Shown: positions 7,119 to 59,639 of the stretch, piece by piece
Layout: every line of letters starts with the position of its first letter
Numbering within the stretch: the first letter of the stretch is position 1
DNA from: Cyanobacteria bacterium P01_D01_bin.156
GTDB taxonomy: Bacteria; Cyanobacteriota; Cyanobacteriia; Phormidesmidales; Phormidesmidaceae
Direction: 5' to 3'
NCBI GenBank assembly: GCA_039024555.1
Contig: JBCCQQ010000004.1
Span: 64,001-128,000, forward strand
Length of the DNA: 64,000 bases
Program-made: the position numbers and the translations under genes
The notes under the pieces: generated by a model
The model's input: only the letters and a program-made list of their open reading frames with translations
Database searches by the model: none
Told to the model about the DNA's origin: nothing

Positions 7119-8843
7119 CTAAGCCCCGGCGGCAATCTGATTACGTCCCTTATTTTTAGCCTGATACAAGGCCTTATCAGCTTGTTCAACCAGAGACTTA
7201 GATGTCGCCTCCCGAAGACTTTTGGGGGCAATGACACCGAAGCTTAAAGTGACATAATCACTGACATCAGAAGCTACATGAGGAATTTTCAACTTAGCGA
7301 CCTGCCGCTGAATATTACCTAGCACCTCAAAAGCAACAGGAAGTTCTGTATTTGGCAAAACGATGACAAACTCTTCTCCACCGTAGCGAGCAACAAAATC
7401 ACTATGGCGTACACCCTGCTGAAGCGTTTTAGCCACGGAGATTAAACACCTATCGCCTTCCTGATGTCCGTAAGTATCGTTATAGCGTTTGAAATAATCT
7501 ACATCACACAAAACCAGAGCAAGACTCGTCTGTTGCTGAATACAGCGCTGAAGATAGGTATCAAAGGAACGGCGGTTAGCAATGCGGGTTAAGCCATCCA
7601 GAGATGCCAACCCCTGTAGTTGATGGTTTTGACGTAGCAGCAATACGGTCGATGCCAGGGAGATCGACAGTAGTGGGGCTGCAATGGGTAACCATAAGCC
7701 AGCCACAAAAAAAGCATAGACAATAGCTATTAGCCCAGACCCAACGCATGGGATCACTAATAGTAAGGAAAACAAATTTTTGTTCTTATAGACCCCATTG
7801 TGGTCCAGCACTTTATTCACTAACAACGCAGCTAAGCTAGTGGATAAAAGCAACCACCCTGTTTTTATCCAAGGTGAGGCACCATGCAATGGCTGACGTT
7901 CACCCAAGGCACCACCAATCAATTGACTGGCAATATGAGCGTGGATAAATACTCCCGGTAGTCGTTCATCCCAACTCATAGGAGTGTAGAGCAAGTCGTT
8001 AAGGCTAACGGCTGTAGCACCAACTAGAATGATGCGATCGTAAATTTTGTCATAAGATATCTCACCATTGAGTACATCAGAAAATGAAACAGATTCAAAA
8101 AATGTGCGCCCTGCTGGGTAATCAATTAAAATTTGAGTACTATGAGCATCAGCCTTTGCATAGCCACCATCACTAGGGAAAAATCGTCGAAATACGGTGG
8201 CGCCCAGTTGTAAATGAGCTTCATCCAATACTTTTGGAGTTATTTTCTCTTTTTCTAAATAACGTAAAGCTAGCTTAGTACCTAAGCCATATTTACGCTG
8301 CTGATGTTCCTCAGTCTCACATAGTTGTTGTTCTTGGTTACATTGAATAGCCAGTAAGCCTCGGCGAATACGGCCATCCTTATCTGCCACCAGATCGGCT
8401 ATGGCTACCTGGTCATCTCGATCAAGACCAGAGACTGGGGGAACAGCTTCCCCGATAACTTTTTCTACCCCAATCACATTGGAAAAAGTATTAAAAGCAA
8501 TTAGGAGATCATCACGTCCATCACCAACAGGTAAATCACGATAAATATCTATGCCGATTAGCCTAGGGCTGTGCCGCTGTAGCTGCTCTAACAAGCTGGC
8601 CATCTTACTATCAGAAATAGGCCACTCCCCTATTTGTCTGAGATCTTCTTCACCGAGAGTAACAATTAAAAATCGGGAGTCGATCTGATCGGTAGATTTC
8701 CACCGGAGAAAACGATCAAAGGCAAACCATTCTAGGGATTGTAAAATACCTAAGGCACTAATAGAGATTACCAGTGCGGAAATTCCCCATGAAACAGCTA
8801 AAATCCCTCCTAGTTGACGAATTCGCCATCTCAATTGCAACAT
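7119..8843 (-). CDS. CHASE2-sensor diguanylate cyclase
   Basis: TM, CHASE2 (WPISD, IGIDIYRD, DGRIRR, IILVG, PGVFIHA), three TM segments, then GGDEF domain (DGLT, DVDYFKRYND, RxxD I-site RHSD, GGEEF). Confidence 0.9.
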   Translation of the reverse strand: MLQLRWRIRQLGGILAVSWGISALVISISALGILQSLEWFAFDRFLRWKSTDQIDSRFLIVTLGEEDLRQIGEWPISDSKMASLLEQLQRHSPRLIGIDIYRDLPVGDGRDDLLIAFNTFSNVIGVEKVIGEAVPPVSGLDRDDQVAIADLVADKDGRIRRGLLAIQCNQEQQLCETEEHQQRKYGLGTKLALRYLEKEKITPKVLDEAHLQLGATVFRRFFPSDGGYAKADAHSTQILIDYPAGRTFFESVSFSDVLNGEISYDKIYDRIILVGATAVSLNDLLYTPMSWDERLPGVFIHAHIASQLIGGALGERQPLHGASPWIKTGWLLLSTSLAALLVNKVLDHNGVYKNKNLFSLLLVIPCVGSGLIAIVYAFFVAGLWLPIAAPLLSISLASTVLLLRQNHQLQGLASLDGLTRIANRRSFDTYLQRCIQQQTSLALVLCDVDYFKRYNDTYGHQEGDRCLISVAKTLQQGVRHSDFVARYGGEEFVIVLPNTELPVAFEVLGNIQRQVAKLKIPHVASDVSDYVTLSFGVIAPKSLREATSKSLVEQADKALYQAKNKGRNQIAAGA

Positions 8844-8905: not shown

Positions 8906-9631
8906 TTATTTGAGAATGGGATTATTAGCTACTTCAGTCAACTCAGTACCTTCTAAAACGTCTTGCCAGGCACTATTTACAGCCTGATCGGTAGGATTCT
9001 GAATGCGTAAATCTGCCAGTAGAGAAATCATGTCATACCAGAGATGGGCCTGACGATACTCCGTAGCTTGTTCGAGGCTGGATTGAGTATTATCAATGTT
9101 AGCTATTGACTGCATCTGAATCCAGCCCTGTAGTGATGGGCTATCGGGTCTCAGGCGTTCATTACACATGAGAATAAGCGACCACTGATAGAGTTCATTT
9201 TCAGCCAGTGCAGGTGCTTCCGCAGGAAGTTGAATACTTACGATCCCGGGAGTACGAGGAAGTTCAATGTAAGTTTCATAGTAGTAATCATTATCGGACT
9301 GAATACTAAACAAAGCTTGGCTAGGAATATCTACAGATGTAGCCACCAAAACCTCAGGATGAGATTTACTGGTCATCCCATACTGAGACGCAGGCATCAG
9401 AGCAGTTAGCTGATCAGCAGAACAACTCCCCCGAGAAGCCCCGCTAACAGTTCCTGCAGGGGCCTGATCATCATCATCAGGCCAAAATGACCAATCACTG
9501 CTGGGAAGAGCATTTACTGCTCCTGCATTTTTGATAACCTCTGCTGCTGCAGGCCCCTGTATGCATAGGCCGACTGCTGTTAATGCCAATACACAGAGGA
9601 TTTTGTAGCGTTGCACCATAAGTCCAGTCAT
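8906..9631 (-). CDS. DUF928 family secreted protein
   Basis: Signal peptide, GASRG-x-C motif, LTALMP, YQWSL, GWIQ, LWYD, W..L...L C-terminus; sits between CHAT and CHASE2 genes as is typical. Confidence 0.85.
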   Translation of the reverse strand: MTGLMVQRYKILCVLALTAVGLCIQGPAAAEVIKNAGAVNALPSSDWSFWPDDDDQAPAGTVSGASRGSCSADQLTALMPASQYGMTSKSHPEVLVATSVDIPSQALFSIQSDNDYYYETYIELPRTPGIVSIQLPAEAPALAENELYQWSLILMCNERLRPDSPSLQGWIQMQSIANIDNTQSSLEQATEYRQAHLWYDMISLLADLRIQNPTDQAVNSAWQDVLEGTELTEVANNPILK

Positions 9632-9806: not shown

Positions 9807-12380
9807 TTAAGCTAACCAATTACCAATGAGAACAAATGATGCCCAATAAAACGGATGACTATATTTTTTGTTATCAATCAACGAGATTTGAGCCTGACGT
9901 AAAGCTTCTGCCTTTGTAGTTGATGGGCTGACTTCACCTAAAGCTTTGTAAAAGGCATTAATCAGTTCCACAGTCGATTCATCATTAACTGACCACAGCG
10001 TAGCTAGCGTACTACGTGCTCCTGATTTAATAGCCATCCCCGCTAGGCCTAAGGTGGCCCGATCATCTCCCTCAGCGGTTTGACAAGCACTTAAAACCAT
10101 GAGTTCAATCGGATTTTGGGTCTGAATACGCCGGTTTTTTAGTAGTCTATCGAAATCCGTTAGGGAGATGGTTTGGTCCCAAGCTAGCAGAAACGTGTTG
10201 GCCAAGTTAGAGCTAAATTGGCCATGGGTAGCCAGATGCAGAATTGGATAGGGACTGGCTTGGATCTGATCCTCAAAAGCTTTTTTAGTAAAGTCTCTAT
10301 CCAAATAGATTTGGGACTGATTTAGTTTGGATGAGATCTTACTGATTTCTTCCTTAACTCCTGGCAAAGGGGAAAAGCCTTGACGTGATTCACTCAGACC
10401 CAAAATAAGTGCTTCCAAAGGTTTTGGTTTATCAAAGTGGGGACCCATTAAATCTAGCCCCGGCGTTAAAGCGATGCCATAGGTTTCTATCAGATACTGT
10501 TCCCCATCATGTAGAGCCGCCATAGGTATATTGCGCAGCTTTCCATCGAGTACAAAGACTAGAGTCTTAATATCTTGCTGTGTTAACTGATCTGCCGCTG
10601 GTCGAATTAACCAATCATAAAGTTGTTTAGAAAATTGTAAGCGACGACGATCGGGCAGAGCCGGATTAAATGCAACAAAAAATTGGTCCAGAGTTTTATC
10701 GAGCTCAGCCTGGGACAATCGAGTCTGATAGTGGCTCAGAGGTTGACCAGGTAGAGCAAGGATAACTTCTAGACGATCCGGCAGAATGATTGGATAGATA
10801 ACGGCAGCCTGGGGGTCAAGCTGATCAATCTGTTTGGACTGGCTATCAATGCAGGCAGAGCGAAAATAGTTTTCGAGTTCAACAAGCTGCAAATCTTCGA
10901 TCAAATTACGAGCTTGTTTCAAGGCATTTTGATCACCATTGCCAGGTTTGAGTAACAGACTCACTAGCTCACGATAGAGGGGTTCAACTTCATCGCGAAC
11001 ACTGAATTGAAGCTCAGAGTTCGTGGCTAATAGATCAGCCCTCACAGAGGATAAGGTATCAATCGCTTCTGTATAGGTCGAGATTGCACGCTGTTCCTTA
11101 TTTTGCTGGTGATAAACTTTCCCAAGCTGCCACTGCCAGCGGTAGCCAATATCTTTGGCATGGCTGGTCTTAGCCAACCGCATGGCCTTTTGAGTCACCT
11201 GGCGGGCGTTTTCCCATTGCTGTGTAGTAATGTACAACTGCCCCAACTCTCCTAGCGCTAAGGATTCAGCCCGAGCATCATTGAGCTGTTGGGCTTGGTG
11301 GGCACCATCAGCCAGCAACTTTGCCAAATGATGCATGGGAACAGCAGGTATGTCGCTTGGTTTTACATTATTGAACTTACGGACACTCTCAACAAAGTTC
11401 ACTCGCTGATAGATACTAGACCGACTAGGCTGCAACTGAGGCAGTTGCTGACTCAACGCATCCATCAAAGATTGAGCTGCAGACCAATCATTGAGTTCTA
11501 CTAATAAGCTCAACAAATTCAGCTGAGCCGTCATGTGGTCGGCGGTGTTATCCGCCATAGGCATTAGCTGCTCATAAATATCGAGCGCTTCCCCCAACTG
11601 ATTTTGGGTTCTCAAGGTATTGGCAAGCGCCAGTAGCGTTTTAACGGTTTCCCCAGGCTGAGCTAACGTTTGAGTAATCGTTAGACTCTGTTCTAGGAGT
11701 TCCTGAGATTGCTCTAAACTGCCAGTTACCTGCAGTACACTGCCCAGACTACGTAAAGCAGTTGCTTTAAGGACAGAATCAGGCTGACTCTCAACAGAGA
11801 CCACTAGCTCATCTAAAAGGGTTTTAGCCCGACGATAGAACCCCAATGTTTGCATCGCTTGGGCTTGATTTAAGCGACTGCCCAGTTCACCTACAGGGTC
11901 ATCAATTTGCTCATAGACAGAAGTTGCTTCTTGCCAAGTGGCTAGGGCAGCTTCCGGTTGCCCTAGAGCTAGCTGAATACTCCCGTAGGTATTCAGTACC
12001 TGGGCCGTTACTTGGAGCGGCGTTTCAACATCTTGAATTAGCTGCAAACTCTGTTGAATGGTTTGTTCAGCCTTTTGCCATTGCCCTAGTTCCTGATAAG
12101 ACAGGGCTAAATAGCTTAAACTCAGAGCTGTTTCAGTAGATTTATGCTGTTGTCCATAGAGCTGCGTAGCCTGCTGCCAGCGGTGAGTCGCTCGCTGGGA
12201 ATGGCCCACTTCATAGGCTTGATAAGCTTCACCCCAGGATTTATCGGATGATTGCTGAATAGCAAAGCTGGGTCCAGTCGTAATCAACAAACAAATCATC
12301 AGGGAACATATACCCCATTTGAAATGCTGCCGTTTAGTGAGTTTATGTTGTACTTGCCGTAGCCACCGTCGCACCATCAT
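9807..12380 (-). CDS. TPR-repeat CHAT (caspase-like) protease, probably exported
   Basis: N-terminal signal-like segment, multiple TPRs, LHLATHG (His) and VLSACQTA (Cys) dyad, HPFYWASF C-terminus. Confidence 0.9.
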   Translation of the reverse strand: MMVRRWLRQVQHKLTKRQHFKWGICSLMICLLITTGPSFAIQQSSDKSWGEAYQAYEVGHSQRATHRWQQATQLYGQQHKSTETALSLSYLALSYQELGQWQKAEQTIQQSLQLIQDVETPLQVTAQVLNTYGSIQLALGQPEAALATWQEATSVYEQIDDPVGELGSRLNQAQAMQTLGFYRRAKTLLDELVVSVESQPDSVLKATALRSLGSVLQVTGSLEQSQELLEQSLTITQTLAQPGETVKTLLALANTLRTQNQLGEALDIYEQLMPMADNTADHMTAQLNLLSLLVELNDWSAAQSLMDALSQQLPQLQPSRSSIYQRVNFVESVRKFNNVKPSDIPAVPMHHLAKLLADGAHQAQQLNDARAESLALGELGQLYITTQQWENARQVTQKAMRLAKTSHAKDIGYRWQWQLGKVYHQQNKEQRAISTYTEAIDTLSSVRADLLATNSELQFSVRDEVEPLYRELVSLLLKPGNGDQNALKQARNLIEDLQLVELENYFRSACIDSQSKQIDQLDPQAAVIYPIILPDRLEVILALPGQPLSHYQTRLSQAELDKTLDQFFVAFNPALPDRRRLQFSKQLYDWLIRPAADQLTQQDIKTLVFVLDGKLRNIPMAALHDGEQYLIETYGIALTPGLDLMGPHFDKPKPLEALILGLSESRQGFSPLPGVKEEISKISSKLNQSQIYLDRDFTKKAFEDQIQASPYPILHLATHGQFSSNLANTFLLAWDQTISLTDFDRLLKNRRIQTQNPIELMVLSACQTAEGDDRATLGLAGMAIKSGARSTLATLWSVNDESTVELINAFYKALGEVSPSTTKAEALRQAQISLIDNKKYSHPFYWASFVLIGNWLA

Positions 12381-16459: not shown

Positions 16460-17405
16460 CATCCTGCAACCAAGCAGAAAGGTCCCGCTGAAGTAAGTCT
16501 TGCAGCTGCAAAATATCATCTCGATAGTACTGACGTAGCAGAATCATGTCCTCATCGGTGAATCTGGCCTGACTTTTGTCCTGGGAGTTGAGATTAATGA
16601 GCTTGGCTCGCAGCTGATGTCTTAAATCAGTAGGGACAATTTGCATCATGCCAGTGGCTATGTTGCGAATAGGATTCTGAGTTTTTAGCAACCGATTTAA
16701 TCGTCGGCTTTTTGGAACCTGGGCCGTTTGAGCCTGCTTAGACGTATTGGCAACAAAATCTGCACTTACACCAATGGATTGGTAAAGGGTTCGCATAAAG
16801 CCCCGGGCATCTTGACGCAGATCGTCGTAGAGAAAAACATCGACTTGGCTACGCCCAAATACCTCTATAAAGTGCTTGATCGGTGCGTAATATTTACCCT
16901 TCAACAGCACATAGGATGAATCGCCTCGACTGCGCACTTGCTCTGCCAGGGGTGTTTGCTTCCCAATGGCATCGCGCAAATTCATTAAATAGTCGGAACA
17001 CGCTCGCTGCACTGGATCACGCAAAATCGCGATGAGCTTAGCCTGGGGTAGCCGACGCTGAATTTGTTCAGCCGACGACCGATAGTGAAACATATAGTTA
17101 GGGGAGGCTTCTCCAAGGGCAATGTGCTGCTCATTCGCTTGATCAAACAGCTTCTGGTATTGCTGCCACGTGATGATGCCATTTTTTTTAACCCGCTGCA
17201 CCTTTTCAGGGGCCACTTCCCAGTCTCGTTCAAAGAAACCAGTTTCCTTCACCGGGCTCATGTAAACCTGGGGATGCTGTTTGAGATAGTTATATATAGA
17301 CGTGGTGCCTGCTTTTTGGACACCGATCATTAAAAATGTGGGTTGGCGCTGGGTGGCCTTCGACTGAATAGGAACAGAAACGCCCTGGGCATTATTGGCA
17401 GTCAT
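16452..17405 (-). CDS. Sulfotransferase family protein
   Basis: PAPS-binding GVQKAGTTS, GEASPNY, LRDPVQRACS. Confidence 0.9.
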   Translation of the reverse strand: MTANNAQGVSVPIQSKATQRQPTFLMIGVQKAGTTSIYNYLKQHPQVYMSPVKETGFFERDWEVAPEKVQRVKKNGIITWQQYQKLFDQANEQHIALGEASPNYMFHYRSSAEQIQRRLPQAKLIAILRDPVQRACSDYLMNLRDAIGKQTPLAEQVRSRGDSSYVLLKGKYYAPIKHFIEVFGRSQVDVFLYDDLRQDARGFMRTLYQSIGVSADFVANTSKQAQTAQVPKSRRLNRLLKTQNPIRNIATGMMQIVPTDLRHQLRAKLINLNSQDKSQARFTDEDMILLRQYYRDDILQLQDLLQRDLSAWLQDAN

Positions 17406-56592: not shown

Positions 56593-56715
56593 TTAGCAGT
56601 AGTCCGCACTGCAGCTCTGAGTCTGTCTGAGCTTATTCCACACGGACAACACCAGGCCCAGAAAAAGTGCTGTGCGCTGTGTTCTCATTGCTTTAATAGA
56701 AGATAGAACAATCAT
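56593..56715 (-). CDS. Putative 40-aa small protein
   Basis: AGGAGG 8 nt before ATG; MIVLSSIKAMRTQRTALFLGLVLSVWNKLRQTQSCSADYC. Confidence 0.45.
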   Translation of the reverse strand: MIVLSSIKAMRTQRTALFLGLVLSVWNKLRQTQSCSADYC

Positions 56716-57284: not shown

Positions 57285-57332
57285 AAGCCACGAGCGCAGT
57301 AAGTTCATATGAACTTACTGCGCTCGTGGCTT
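57285..57332. terminator. Perfect 48-bp palindrome just downstream of the small peptide gene
   Basis: AAGCCACGAGCGCAGTAAGTTCAT|ATGAACTTACTGCGCTCGTGGCTT. Confidence 0.55.
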
Positions 57333-57355: not shown

Positions 57356-57547
57356 TTAACGACTAGAACTACCCGTTCTACCAGTTGTCCGATTTGGATC
57401 CGGTGGTGGGGGTTCAAAGCCAGCAACAGCAGAGCTACCCATCACAGAAATAATCGGCATCGAAATTAAAACAGCTATGACTAAACGGAGCCATAGTTGC
57501 CTTGTCACTTTTAATGTAGACGTTTTAATCACCTCCTTTATTAACAT
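57356..57547 (-). CDS. Small secreted peptide precursor (signal peptide plus ~21-aa mature peptide)
   Basis: Basic n-region, hydrophobic h-region, AVA cleavage motif, then GFEPPPPDPNRTTGRTGSSSR-stop; start uncertain (57556, 57547 or later). Confidence 0.7.
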   Translation of the reverse strand: MLIKEVIKTSTLKVTRQLWLRLVIAVLISMPIISVMGSSAVAGFEPPPPDPNRTTGRTGSSSR

Positions 57548-57677
57548 AAGTGACACCTGTAAGTCCCCATATAATGTCGTAGAGTCAAGGGGTAAAGTTT
57601 AGAAACCATAGCTCGTTTACCTTAATCTTTATATGCCCAGTACAGCTGCAAAATAGAAGCTTAAAAGCAGCTTTTTA

Positions 57678-59639
57678 TTACGTCGATAAGGGAAACGTCA
57701 ACTGACAGAAAAATCCTTTTGGCTTGTTTGGTCGCCGTACAAACGTCCCCTTCGTTAGCTTTTCAATTTCTTGACCAATGCGTGTACCTTCACCGCTGCC
57801 AGCTTCATGCATATCCACTCCAGGGCCATTGTCAGCCACCGTTATCTCATAGTGTTCATCTTTGTGTTTTCCAGTCACCACTAGCTGTGTAGCTCCAACG
57901 GCGTGTTTGCCAACGTTCCCTAGGGCTTCCTCCACAAATCGACATAGCTTACGCTTAACTTCAACGTTTAAGATGTCTGATTCGAGCGGATCAAAAGAAA
58001 TAATTGTGAATTTAAGGCTTGAAAAGCCCAACAAGGGCCTTGATAGCATGGCATCGTACACCTCCTGAAAAAGTTCGTGTAGAGGAATATCTAAGTCAAA
58101 CTTGGTGCCCGCATAGCTAACATCTAGGCTATTTTTTCGAGCCACTACATCCTCCTTGATCGAATCCCCAATGTATCGAATCTCTCGATTGAGATCTTCT
58201 AGCCCTAGGCAGATATCCGGTATATTAATCGTTTCGTCACGGGTGCGTCTAAGCAAGTTGGCCAGAGTTTGAAGCGGCCCATTGTGAATGGAGTCAAATA
58301 CGTTTTCAATCGTTTTTTGCCGTGCAAAGGCTAACTTTTCAGAAACGTGGCGTTCCTTTTCTAGAGCCAGATTACGCTGTTCAATTAGCTTGGCCCAGCG
58401 GCGTTCGTTTTGAGCATAGTTGATATAGATCAAACCATTGGCCGTTATAGAGACCAATGTTACGGCCAGCGGTAACCATAGGCCAACTTGCAACAGTAAA
58501 ATATAGCTAACAACAATGCTTGAACCAGCAATTAGTGATAATCGGACAAAACCGCTAATCACCCCCTGAGAAAAGCGACTGGCGATAATACTGAGAATTG
58601 AAAAAGAGATTAAGAATATTAGTTGAGCAATTCCACTAGTCCAAAGTAACGGTTGTTGCTTTTCGACTGCCTTAATAATTTGACTGATCGTGTAGGCTTG
58701 AATTTCTGCGCCACTGGCCAGCTGCTTATTATTTACAACACGATTAAAAACGGTTAGCGGTATTTGGTTTCCTTGAAGCGGATCTACCAAACTAACAATG
58801 ACAATTTTATCTTTAATTCGCTCGTCTTCTTGTCTTTGGGACGTTAGTAAATCTGTTCTACCGATTAGGTTAAAAGGTTTAACTTGCCCCCGATAGTTAA
58901 TCAAAGCCTGAATATCGGATTCATCATTGTTGACATATCCGTAGGCAGATTTAATCCTAGGAATCTCAACCGGTCCGAATCGCATTGCGAGCTCATCCTG
59001 AATACCATTCTCTAGCTCAAGATCTTGATTGCTGAAGCGCTCACTTTTGAAATAGCTTTGAATAATTTGGATAGCAAAAGACGTCTCAAATTCATCATCA
59101 GTGTTATAAGAACCTAACAAAGCTCGACGAACTGTACCATCACGATCAAGCGACAGGTCGTTAAACCCAACTTGTTGATTGAGTTGAGTTTGAGAGAGTT
59201 TTGGCAACGGTTCTACGGGATTAGAAAGAATCCGCTCTACCAAAATTAAATTAGAATTCCTTCTAATAAGCGGCAACAGAGTTTTATCTAGGTCCCCTGT
59301 AATTCGATGAGATAAAATATCGATACCGACAACAGCCGGCTCGTTTTCGAAGATATTCTCTAGAATCTCAGTCAACTCCGCTGCATCAATGGTATCGATG
59401 GTCTCATCTGTATCGTTAGTCTCCTCAGTAGATAGAGAATCAATTCCAACAATTGTGATCGGCTTATCACCAGTTTGAAACGATAGCTGAGTCGCCAGCA
59501 ACCGGTCCAAGGCCATGAGTTCAACAACCTGGAATGCCCCGAGAGAACGTGCACCTATCACAGAAGCCACGATACCCAGACCCCAAAGACCAGTTTTGAG
59601 TCGCTCTAAAGACTTCTCCCAACGGCTTTGGTCTTCCAT
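57678..59639 (-). CDS. CHASE2-sensor histidine kinase (HisKA_3-like)
   Basis: TM, CHASE2 (VVGIDI, VGFNDL..D.DG.VRR, LINYRG, SGAEIQA), three TM segments; H-box DSIHNGPLQ, N-box EEALGNVGKHA, DNGPG, GEGT. Confidence 0.9.
   Translation of the reverse strand: MEDQSRWEKSLERLKTGLWGLGIVASVIGARSLGAFQVVELMALDRLLATQLSFQTGDKPITIVGIDSLSTEETNDTDETIDTIDAAELTEILENIFENEPAVVGIDILSHRITGDLDKTLLPLIRRNSNLILVERILSNPVEPLPKLSQTQLNQQVGFNDLSLDRDGTVRRALLGSYNTDDEFETSFAIQIIQSYFKSERFSNQDLELENGIQDELAMRFGPVEIPRIKSAYGYVNNDESDIQALINYRGQVKPFNLIGRTDLLTSQRQEDERIKDKIVIVSLVDPLQGNQIPLTVFNRVVNNKQLASGAEIQAYTISQIIKAVEKQQPLLWTSGIAQLIFLISFSILSIIASRFSQGVISGFVRLSLIAGSSIVVSYILLLQVGLWLPLAVTLVSITANGLIYINYAQNERRWAKLIEQRNLALEKERHVSEKLAFARQKTIENVFDSIHNGPLQTLANLLRRTRDETINIPDICLGLEDLNREIRYIGDSIKEDVVARKNSLDVSYAGTKFDLDIPLHELFQEVYDAMLSRPLLGFSSLKFTIISFDPLESDILNVEVKRKLCRFVEEALGNVGKHAVGATQLVVTGKHKDEHYEITVADNGPGVDMHEAGSGEGTRIGQEIEKLTKGTFVRRPNKPKGFFCQLTFPLST

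Follow-up and report, generated by a model that had tools for sequence, protein, structure and literature searches.

CHASE2 is a widespread bacterial sensor domain. Its ligands are called unknown in a 2023 paper on a cyanobacterial CHASE2-GGDEF protein (PMC10581220). In Sinorhizobium meliloti the CHASE2 cyclases CyaD1, CyaD2 and CyaK respond to the plant protein uL2 via the outer-membrane protein NsrA, so that the single CHASE2 input studied is a protein (PMC13001267). Here we describe a small gene located 3' of a CHASE2 histidine kinase gene in a 64,000-nucleotide (nt) stretch of Cyanobacteria bacterium P01_D01_bin.156 (contig JBCCQQ010000004.1, positions 64,001 to 128,000; hereafter the window). 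This gene, which we call the mini-gene, encodes the precursor of a predicted 21-residue peptide resembling a motif in the N-terminal part of DUF928 (PF06051) proteins, and the peptide is a candidate partner of the kinase CHASE2 domain.

The nearest comparison is with the DUF928 proteins themselves. They have a signal peptide, carry the same [FY]-x-P-P...[ST]-R motif, occupy the same position directly downstream of a CHASE2 kinase, and their sequence profile aligns with that of the mini-gene product. However, the mini-gene lacks the whole DUF928 domain and any Pfam match, and its loci lack a CHAT gene. Outside subscription journals DUF928 has almost no literature, and we found no published account of such a CHASE2-linked secreted peptide there. 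In one paper, DUF928 is mentioned merely as the neighbor of a CHASE2 gene (PMC5587647). Among known structures, the C-terminal domain of MtxA from magnetotactic bacteria (PDB 4Z29, 4z29_B) gives the widest Foldseek coverage of a DUF928 model, with 173 columns and a TM-score of 0.42 by query length and 0.55 by target length. However, the sequence identity is 10% (E 3e-3) and the likeness concerns the DUF928 domain, which is missing from the mini-gene.

As in the S. meliloti system, the input to the CHASE2 receptor would be a protein or peptide rather than a small molecule. There, however, a host protein is sensed through an outer-membrane barrel and the output is cyclic AMP, whereas here the candidate ligand is encoded in the operon of its receptor. 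We know of no DUF928-like motif that takes part in NsrA/uL2 sensing. In the Gram-positive peptide-pheromone two-component systems AgrD/AgrC and ComC/ComD, the gene for the precursor peptide lies in an operon with the sensing kinase and the regulator. The mini-gene likewise shares its operon with a kinase and a regulator. However, its precursor has a Sec-type signal peptide with A-x-A, and the receptor domain is CHASE2 in a two-membrane cell. No AgrB- or ComAB-like processing or export gene was seen in the open reading frame (ORF) lists of the examined loci, where neighboring ORFs were scanned in part against Pfam. By analogy, the arrangement may work like a peptide-sensing two-component system with a Sec-exported peptide and a CHASE2 receptor.

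A small conserved gene in the slot of DUF928

The window contains two minus-strand loci, each with a CHASE2 gene. At locus A the order is TPR-CHAT, DUF928 and CHASE2-GGDEF, and at locus B it is response regulator, CHASE2 histidine kinase and the 66-codon mini-ORF. The regulator, kinase and peptide genes of locus B share a strand and are spaced 0 and 121 nt apart, the regulator reading frame overlapping the kinase start, and a hairpin follows the peptide gene. In both receptors a periplasmic CHASE2 domain, set between transmembrane segments that were read from the sequence alone, is fused to an output domain. An earlier note on this DNA had paired the DUF928 segment with the free peptide, and its coordinates, sequences and spacing for both are correct, as is the presence of a CHASE2 gene beside each. 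It had also placed the DUF928 segment after the signal peptide. The motif is present and is followed by GSC; rather than adjoining the signal peptide, whose probable end is PAAA30, it starts about 18 residues further on.

The mini-ORF is a real, conserved gene. It has four database relatives with 77–85% identity, all ending R-stop; these hardly differ in the mature part, and their variation is in the signal part. Strong six-frame peptide matches (E <= 4.7e-15) occur in 17 of 173 genomes of the order, all belonging to the genus of the window, and in all 17 loci of this genus the mini-ORF lies 66–163 nt downstream of the orthologous kinase gene. Weaker out-of-genus matches from this search (E 0.001–0.05) proved on inspection to be noise. 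Overall, the mini-gene is found in at least six genera of the family. In the mature 21 codons, four close orthologues show 5–10 synonymous versus 3–6 non-synonymous differences, and their stop codon varies (TAA, TGA, TAG) while its position is kept. The mini-ORF matches no Pfam family at E <= 0.01 (the PF06051 cut-off is 26 bits) and no NCBIfam family. The PF06051 model itself starts at residue 63 of the window DUF928 protein and covers just the last five residues of the motif.

Across 25 precursors A45 never varies and A43 reaches a conservation of 90% or more, and in 31 of 32 mini-ORFs A-x-A is followed by one residue and then [FY]-x-P. The signal peptide is probably cleaved at this A-x-A. 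Three sequence types can be distinguished among the mini-peptides: F-E-PPPPDPNRTTGRTGSSSR with its variants, found in the genus of the window, G-Y-N-PPYDQGYPPSRDRTDSSSR, and D-Y-V-PPGGEPPTGRTSTSGMRL. The observation that the peptide stops exactly at an arginine extends to 20 of the 32 mini-ORFs. In three others the arginine lies 1–2 residues before the end and in nine it is absent there; one subclade has 1–2 residues past the arginine or no arginine at all. A lipoprotein identity for the precursor was rejected because it contains no cysteine, and a PatS/HetN-type RGSGR peptide was rejected because neither sequence holds that motif.

The stretch that precedes the hydrophobic core of the signal peptide (KEVIKTTTLRVTK.LWL; 57487-57540, minus strand, and loci L015-L030) is unusually long and well conserved for an n-region, and it may have a role beyond that of an export signal.

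When genomes were searched by kinase rather than by peptide, 79 of 173 gave a match at E <= 1e-60. Sixty kinase loci were picked by kinase similarity from outside the peptide-defined set. A mini-gene or mini-like ORF occurs at 20 of the 60 (18 recognized by pattern; L066 and L084 by eye) and a full DUF928 gene at 30 (28 downstream of the kinase and two upstream). Ten loci have neither, including two with less than 650 nt of downstream sequence. No locus (0/60) has both. All five downstream DUF928 genes tested among these calls were confirmed by Pfam. The mini-gene takes the DUF928 slot, and the two exclude each other.

The kinases divide along the same lines. In an unrooted maximum-likelihood tree of 61 kinases, 20 mini-linked kinases, including that of the window, form one clade (SH-like approximate likelihood ratio test, SH-aLRT, 97), to which two loci with neither gene are sister. 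The opposite side of the tree holds the 30 DUF928-linked kinases, the other eight loci with neither gene, and L084. The nearest DUF928-linked kinases of other families join the mini side. This mini-gene (clade A) is retained in 20 of the 22 loci of its kinase clade, across several genera, and within its own clade it is always beside the CHASE2 kinase.

Some loci encode a further protein after the mini-gene. In one genus group this is a second exported protein (L045:1715-2083, minus strand; L047:4815-5411, plus; L048:1608-2138, minus; L049:4848-5378, plus; L050:4765-5190, plus) with a similar [DE]-[FY]-x-P...PP...T-[ST]-SG stretch followed by a long acidic tail rich in Ser and Thr. The two tested (L047 and L045) have no Pfam match. 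In another subclade the additional protein is about 110 residues long and its C-terminal domain is NfeD-like (PF01957, E 8.7e-10; L053:1619-1951, minus); similar ORFs occur in L051, L052, L058 and L066.

Relationship of the peptide to the DUF928 motif

The DUF928 protein of the window consists of a signal peptide, a flexible N-terminal tail bearing the motif, and a domain formed by a beta-sandwich and three helices. In the AlphaFold2 model (mean predicted local distance difference test, pLDDT, 82.8) residues 71–241 score 88–98. Residues 1–70, which include the motif, have block values of 43–63, almost no secondary structure, and are not packed against the domain. Foldseek with this model also returned a carbohydrate-binding-module-like sandwich (8wae, E 1.7e-4). 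In an alignment of 105 DUF928 proteins, F49, P51, P58, R67 and C70 belong to the few columns with a conservation of 90% or more; R67 lies where the flexible tail meets the folded domain, three positions ahead of C70. The mini-gene lacks C70 and everything downstream of it.

At least one motif (consensus FTPPDDGAPRRTAGGASR) was found by pattern in 123 of 150 DUF928 representatives. Many of these have tandem arrays that repeat the unit ...GGASR-x(2-4)-F-x-PP. One paralogue in the genome of the window carries five copies (F-x-PP-x-D-x-x-x-P...GGASR; contig C8:125908-126930, plus strand, locus L001) and sits between a CHAT gene and a CHASE2 gene. This genome has 43 CHAT and 18 CHASE2 matches in total, and 10 of its 12 DUF928 genes adjoin one of the latter.

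Taken alone, the two window sequences appear only weakly alike. At the level of family profiles the resemblance is plain. Aligned with hhalign, 25 mini-precursors and 105 DUF928 proteins give a probability of 92.6 (P 4.5e-7) and a score of 42.8, compared with 14.3 for the reversed query and at most 19.4 for 200 column shuffles. The alignment pairs F47, P49 and R66 of the mini-precursor with F49, P51 and R67 of DUF928, and the mature part alone scores 24.7 against 16.7 for the best shuffle. A six-frame search of 401 genomes from the phylum with the precursor profile gave 17 matches besides the genome of the window (G000) and G006. Eleven are the N-termini of ORFs confirmed by the DUF928 hidden Markov model (HMM; E 7.5e-8 to 3.7e-4), four are motif-only ORFs, and two are weak. 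Within the approximately 3 kb fetched around each of the eleven DUF928 genes there is a kinase-like gene in ten cases (all but L118) and a CHAT gene in seven. The retrieved DUF928 motifs, such as GYKPPKDQKPPSGYSDSSGVRG, closely resemble the GYNPPYDQGYPPSRDRTDSSSR type of mini-peptide.

Short profiles of the motif alone point the same way. An HMM of 18 positions, built from 155 motifs of the 123 representatives, scores the window peptide at 12.3 bits, and 500 shuffles of the peptide at 4.5 ± 2.5 (p 0.012). Each of the 29 distinct mini-peptides exceeds the mean score of 500 shuffled versions of itself, with p <= 0.05 in 24 and p <= 0.01 in 15. A second HMM of 20 positions, made from kinase-linked DUF928 motifs, gives 16.3 bits versus 7.6 ± 2.4 for the shuffled peptide (p 0.004), and 21 of the 29 reach p <= 0.05; the mini-peptides are mutually related, so the per-peptide values are not independent.

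Judging from these comparisons, descent of the peptide and the DUF928 motif from a common ancestor is well supported. That they are the same element, as the earlier note supposed, is borne out by the hhalign result, by the retrieval of DUF928 N-termini, by the shared and exclusive slot, and by the matching kinase clades. A tblastn search with the 150 DUF928 representatives gave only weak N-terminal alignments to the DNA around the mini-ORF (best E 0.005, 1.9-kb target) and no domain remnant downstream.

Motif-only ORFs evidently arose more than once by independent truncation of DUF928 genes. The L084 ORF ends immediately behind GGVR and can be aligned (E 7e-8) with the N-termini of DUF928 proteins from sister loci. 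In family f7, four ORFs have a signal peptide and the motif followed by unrelated tails of 5–12 residues. One of the four is still behind a regulator-kinase pair, and its kinase is sister to a DUF928-linked kinase (SH-aLRT 95). On contig C50 of this genome an ORF (16904-17212, minus strand) between a DUF928 gene and a convergent CHASE2 gene encodes a signal peptide, FEPPGDSYPDRTSGLGSR, and a 14-residue tail. It is homologous to DUF928 at the N-terminus only (tblastn E 1.6e-8) and may represent either a shortened duplicate or another gene with the motif alone. Such cases illustrate a way in which a mini-gene can come about, and not every such ORF need be functional.

Other observations concern individual ORFs. 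Motif-only ORFs in a family other than that of the window (L123:5160-5369, minus; L124:5205-5435, minus; L125:5040-5240, plus) have no CHASE2 kinase within about 5 kb. They adjoin a gene that by eye resembles a metallo-beta-lactamase-fold protein or RNase Z, and the L125 copy lacks the motif end. A 39-codon ORF ending ...GKPRRTRSGGSR-stop (contig C14:75024-75143, plus) scores 14 bits with the DUF928-motif HMM, a match that is probably due to chance because contig C14 has no CHASE2 match. A loose regular expression (signal peptide, [FY]-x-P and a short tail) gave 71 matches among 192,361 small ORFs, of which the mini-ORF was the sole credible one by eye.

Predicted docking and alternative explanations

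We propose that the motif [FY]-x-P-P ... small residues ... [ST]-R functions as a unit in its own right and that the mini-gene is a reduced DUF928 gene, exporting a peptide of about 21 residues that docks on the kinase CHASE2 domain; we regard this as probable, though not firmly so. DUF928 proteins, the usual neighbors of CHASE2 receptors, would carry the unit on their flexible N-terminal tail, sometimes in tandem. In one clade of response regulator/CHASE2 kinase operons the DUF928 gene would have been reduced to the signal peptide and the motif. The Sec pathway would export the peptide into the periplasm, where its F-x-P-P start could dock into a conserved pocket of the CHASE2 domain. The docked peptide may be a ligand or an obligate co-factor of the kinase and might affect kinase activity. 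Two signs that the motif is separable are its tandem repeats (the five-copy C8 paralogue and many representatives) and its persistence alone after truncations (L084, f7, C50).

The earlier note had suggested that the motif is a CHASE2-binding element, and modelling is consistent with this. Kinase residues 30–345 (alignment of 20) and precursor residues 37–66 (alignment of 25) were co-folded in three runs, with ipSAE (interaction prediction score from aligned errors) values of 0.65, 0.66 and 0.63 (median 0.65), compared with 0.01 for the best of three controls. The runs share at least 86% of their contacts, and the partner pLDDT is at least 61. The mark used was reached by 116 of 157 solved complexes and by 2 of 215 mismatched pairs, figures that hold only roughly here because the alignments were custom. 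The modelled interface comprises precursor residues 45–53, 55–56 and 58–64 and kinase residues 109, 136, 138–139, 142, 160–165, 174, 176, 178, 182, 184, 208–211, 217, 219 and 238–243. F47 contacts residues 209–211 and 219, while P49 and P50 contact G176, F184, 217 and 241–243. The F-x-P-P start thus lies in the model on residues conserved in both kinase classes, namely L209, E210, N211, G176, F/Y184, D161 and D165. Conservation in mini-linked and DUF928-linked kinases, respectively, is 0.71 and 0.87 for L209, 0.86 and 0.70 for E210, 0.95 and 0.93 for N211, 1.00 and 0.90 for G176, 0.95 and 0.60 for F184 (Y in the latter), and 1.00 and 1.00 for D165. Only in mini-linked kinases does the interface as a whole exceed the remaining periplasmic part in conservation (0.66 versus 0.53). 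Together with the gene neighborhood, this controlled model supports, but does not prove, binding of the peptide to the CHASE2 domain.

Several observations weigh against our proposal. The co-fold score is the model's own confidence, and the interface is no better conserved than the rest in DUF928-linked kinases (0.61 versus 0.62) and less conserved in the other CHASE2 proteins of the genome (0.35 versus 0.41). None of the genome's eight other CHASE2 genes that lack DUF928 has a motif-only ORF within 5 kb. Three of the four f7 ORFs have no CHASE2 gene within about 5 kb and carry odd, remnant-like tails past the arginine. About 80 nt past the L084 ORF there is a leftover piece of the DUF928 domain, so this copy appears to be decaying. 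Moreover, HMMs of the short motif fail to connect the two families at genome scale in either direction. The DUF928-motif HMM did not find the mini-ORF at E <= 100 among the 197,449 six-frame ORFs of the genome, a scan headed by five DUF928 paralogues and the C50 ORF. In the same ORFs the kinase-linked motif HMM found only the five-copy C8 paralogue and not the mini-ORF, and a reverse HMM of mini-peptides found itself only, with no DUF928 in the top 30. The power of these short-motif HMMs is low, as they also miss most true DUF928 paralogues, and models of 18–21 positions are too weak for linking families genome-wide.

The earlier note had favored a pro-ligand. On this account the motif is inactive within DUF928, the neighboring exported TPR-CHAT protease cuts after the arginine, the resulting peptides of about 20 residues, several of them from each tandem array, activate CHASE2, and the mini-gene encodes a pre-cut form that needs no protease. 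We consider this unlikely. Several clan-CD proteases cut after arginine, and R67 is at least 90% conserved at the border of tail and domain. The tandem ...GGASR-x(2-4)-F-x-PP arrays would suit it, although tandem copies could equally serve multivalent binding. Both the L084 truncation and 20 of the 32 mini-ORFs end right at the arginine, but one subclade of mini-peptides continues 1–2 residues past it or lacks it, and a free C-terminal arginine is therefore not required. Of the 30 DUF928-type kinase loci, 7 have a CHAT gene within about 2.5 kb, and none does among the 20 mini-type loci or the 10 others, the loci not being independent owing to shared descent; CHAT also adjoins or is fused at seven DUF928 loci of this genome. 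This distribution goes weakly in the direction that cleavage predicts, but 23 of the 30 DUF928-type loci have no CHAT gene in that range. The notion that the motif is masked within DUF928 is not supported by the AlphaFold2 model, in which it lies in the low-confidence, unpacked region (residues 1–70, pLDDT 43–63), a placement that speaks for an exposed rather than a masked tail. An extension of this idea, which we think distinctly improbable, is that DUF928 proteins, above all those with tandem motifs, are polyprotein precursors from which exported caspase-like TPR-CHAT proteases, cutting after every conserved arginine, free diffusible peptides of about 20 residues for CHASE2 kinases and for cyclic di-GMP or cyclic nucleotide monophosphate cyclases, possibly between cells via a periplasm that may be shared along filaments, with the mini-gene as the protease-independent form. 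If true, this would be a protease-gated peptide-hormone system of cyanobacteria.

The motif might instead be recognized by another partner, such as the TPR-CHAT protease, a modifying enzyme or an outer-membrane component, with the mini-peptide as a decoy or competitor. Its high content of Pro, Ser, Thr and Gly recalls many sites of docking or modification, and TPR domains bind peptides. The unremarkable conservation of the interface in DUF928-linked kinases and the orphan f7 ORFs without a nearby CHASE2 gene would also fit. However, all 20 mini-type loci lack a CHAT gene within about 2.5 kb, a CHASE2 protein is the invariant genomic partner of both the mini-gene and DUF928 (10 of 12 DUF928 genes in this genome), and the CHASE2 co-fold passed its controls. 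We judge this explanation to have a small chance of being correct. Less probable still is that truncation of a DUF928 gene left the mini-ORF behind without a function, its likeness to the motif being no more than inherited. Decay-like truncations do exist, as seen in L084 with its domain remnant, the f7 ORFs with their unrelated tails and kinase loss, and the C50 ORF with its 14-residue tail. However, 20 of 22 loci in its kinase clade, from several genera, still have the clade-A mini-gene, its stop position is kept though the codon changes (TAA, TGA, TAG), synonymous differences in the mature part equal or exceed non-synonymous ones, and the mature part is better conserved than the signal peptide.

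Features of the window and significance

The features of the two loci are collected in Table 1. The TPR-CHAT protein may be exported, as it has an N-terminal hydrophobic segment.

Table 1. Coordinates of features at loci A and B of the window
Feature	Position	Strand	Support and remarks
CHASE2-GGDEF diguanylate cyclase, partner of DUF928 (locus A)	7119..8843	-	Pfam CHASE2 E 4.1e-55, GGDEF E 4.5e-51; NCBIfam GGDEF
DUF928 gene	8906..9631	-	241 aa; Pfam PF06051 E 8.8e-44, 149.9 bits, residues 63-239
DUF928 N-terminal motif, F49-R67 = FWPDDDDQAPAGTVSGASR, then GSC	9431..9487	-	Scores 17.8 bits with the motif HMM in the genome-wide scan (E 0.035)
Candidate caspase-like protease of TPR-CHAT type, upstream of DUF928	9807..12380	-	Pfam CHAT E 8.3e-67 and TPR repeats
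Perfect 48-nt palindrome, 24 nt past the mini-gene stop, no T-run (locus B)	57285..57332	.	Sequence
Mini-gene precursor, 66 aa (or 63, with the ATG at 57547 as start codon)	57356..57556	-	ORF call; last gene of the operon
Predicted mature 21-residue peptide, G46-R66 = GFEPPPPDPNRTTGRTGSSSR, then stop	57359..57421	-	Homologous to the DUF928 N-terminal motif
Predicted signal peptide of the mini-precursor: long n-region KEVIKT..L.VT..LWL, hydrophobic core, A-x-A (A43, A45)	57422..57556	-	
CHASE2 histidine kinase, 653 aa, proposed peptide receptor	57678..59639	-	Pfam CHASE2 E 1e-34 (residues 24-350) and HATPase_c
Response regulator, receiver and LuxR/GerE-like helix-turn-helix	59639..60328	-	Pfam Response_reg E 2.2e-11; GerE and Sigma70_r4_2 matches weak

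The palindrome that follows the mini-gene is a probable operon-end hairpin; a consensus terminator scan did not call it. Hairpins of differing sequence were found 3' of the mini-gene stop in four of six orthologues checked in the genus (L015, L017, L019 and L022). Among three loci of other genera, L049 and L053 have no hairpin after the stop and L045 has only a weak overlapping palindrome. Approximately 640 nt downstream of the mini-gene is a 40-codon hydrophobic ORF (MIVLSSIKAMRTQRTALFLGLVLSVWNK...; 56593-56715, minus strand) with AGGAGG seven bases 5' of its ATG, which could encode a small membrane protein. Elsewhere in the genome, CHASE2 and partial CHAT matches fall in one open frame on three contigs (C52:32910-34697, C10:47057-48673 and C1:325592-327163; 774, 824 and 820 aa). 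These frames appear to be protease-receptor fusions and adjoin DUF928 genes.

The genetically encoded 21-mer is a testable candidate partner of CHASE2. Its docking pocket is predicted, three subclades supply natural variants, and because the peptide can be synthesized and mutated it can be tested directly. In addition, the mini-peptide suggests what DUF928 proteins may contribute to CHASE2 signalling.

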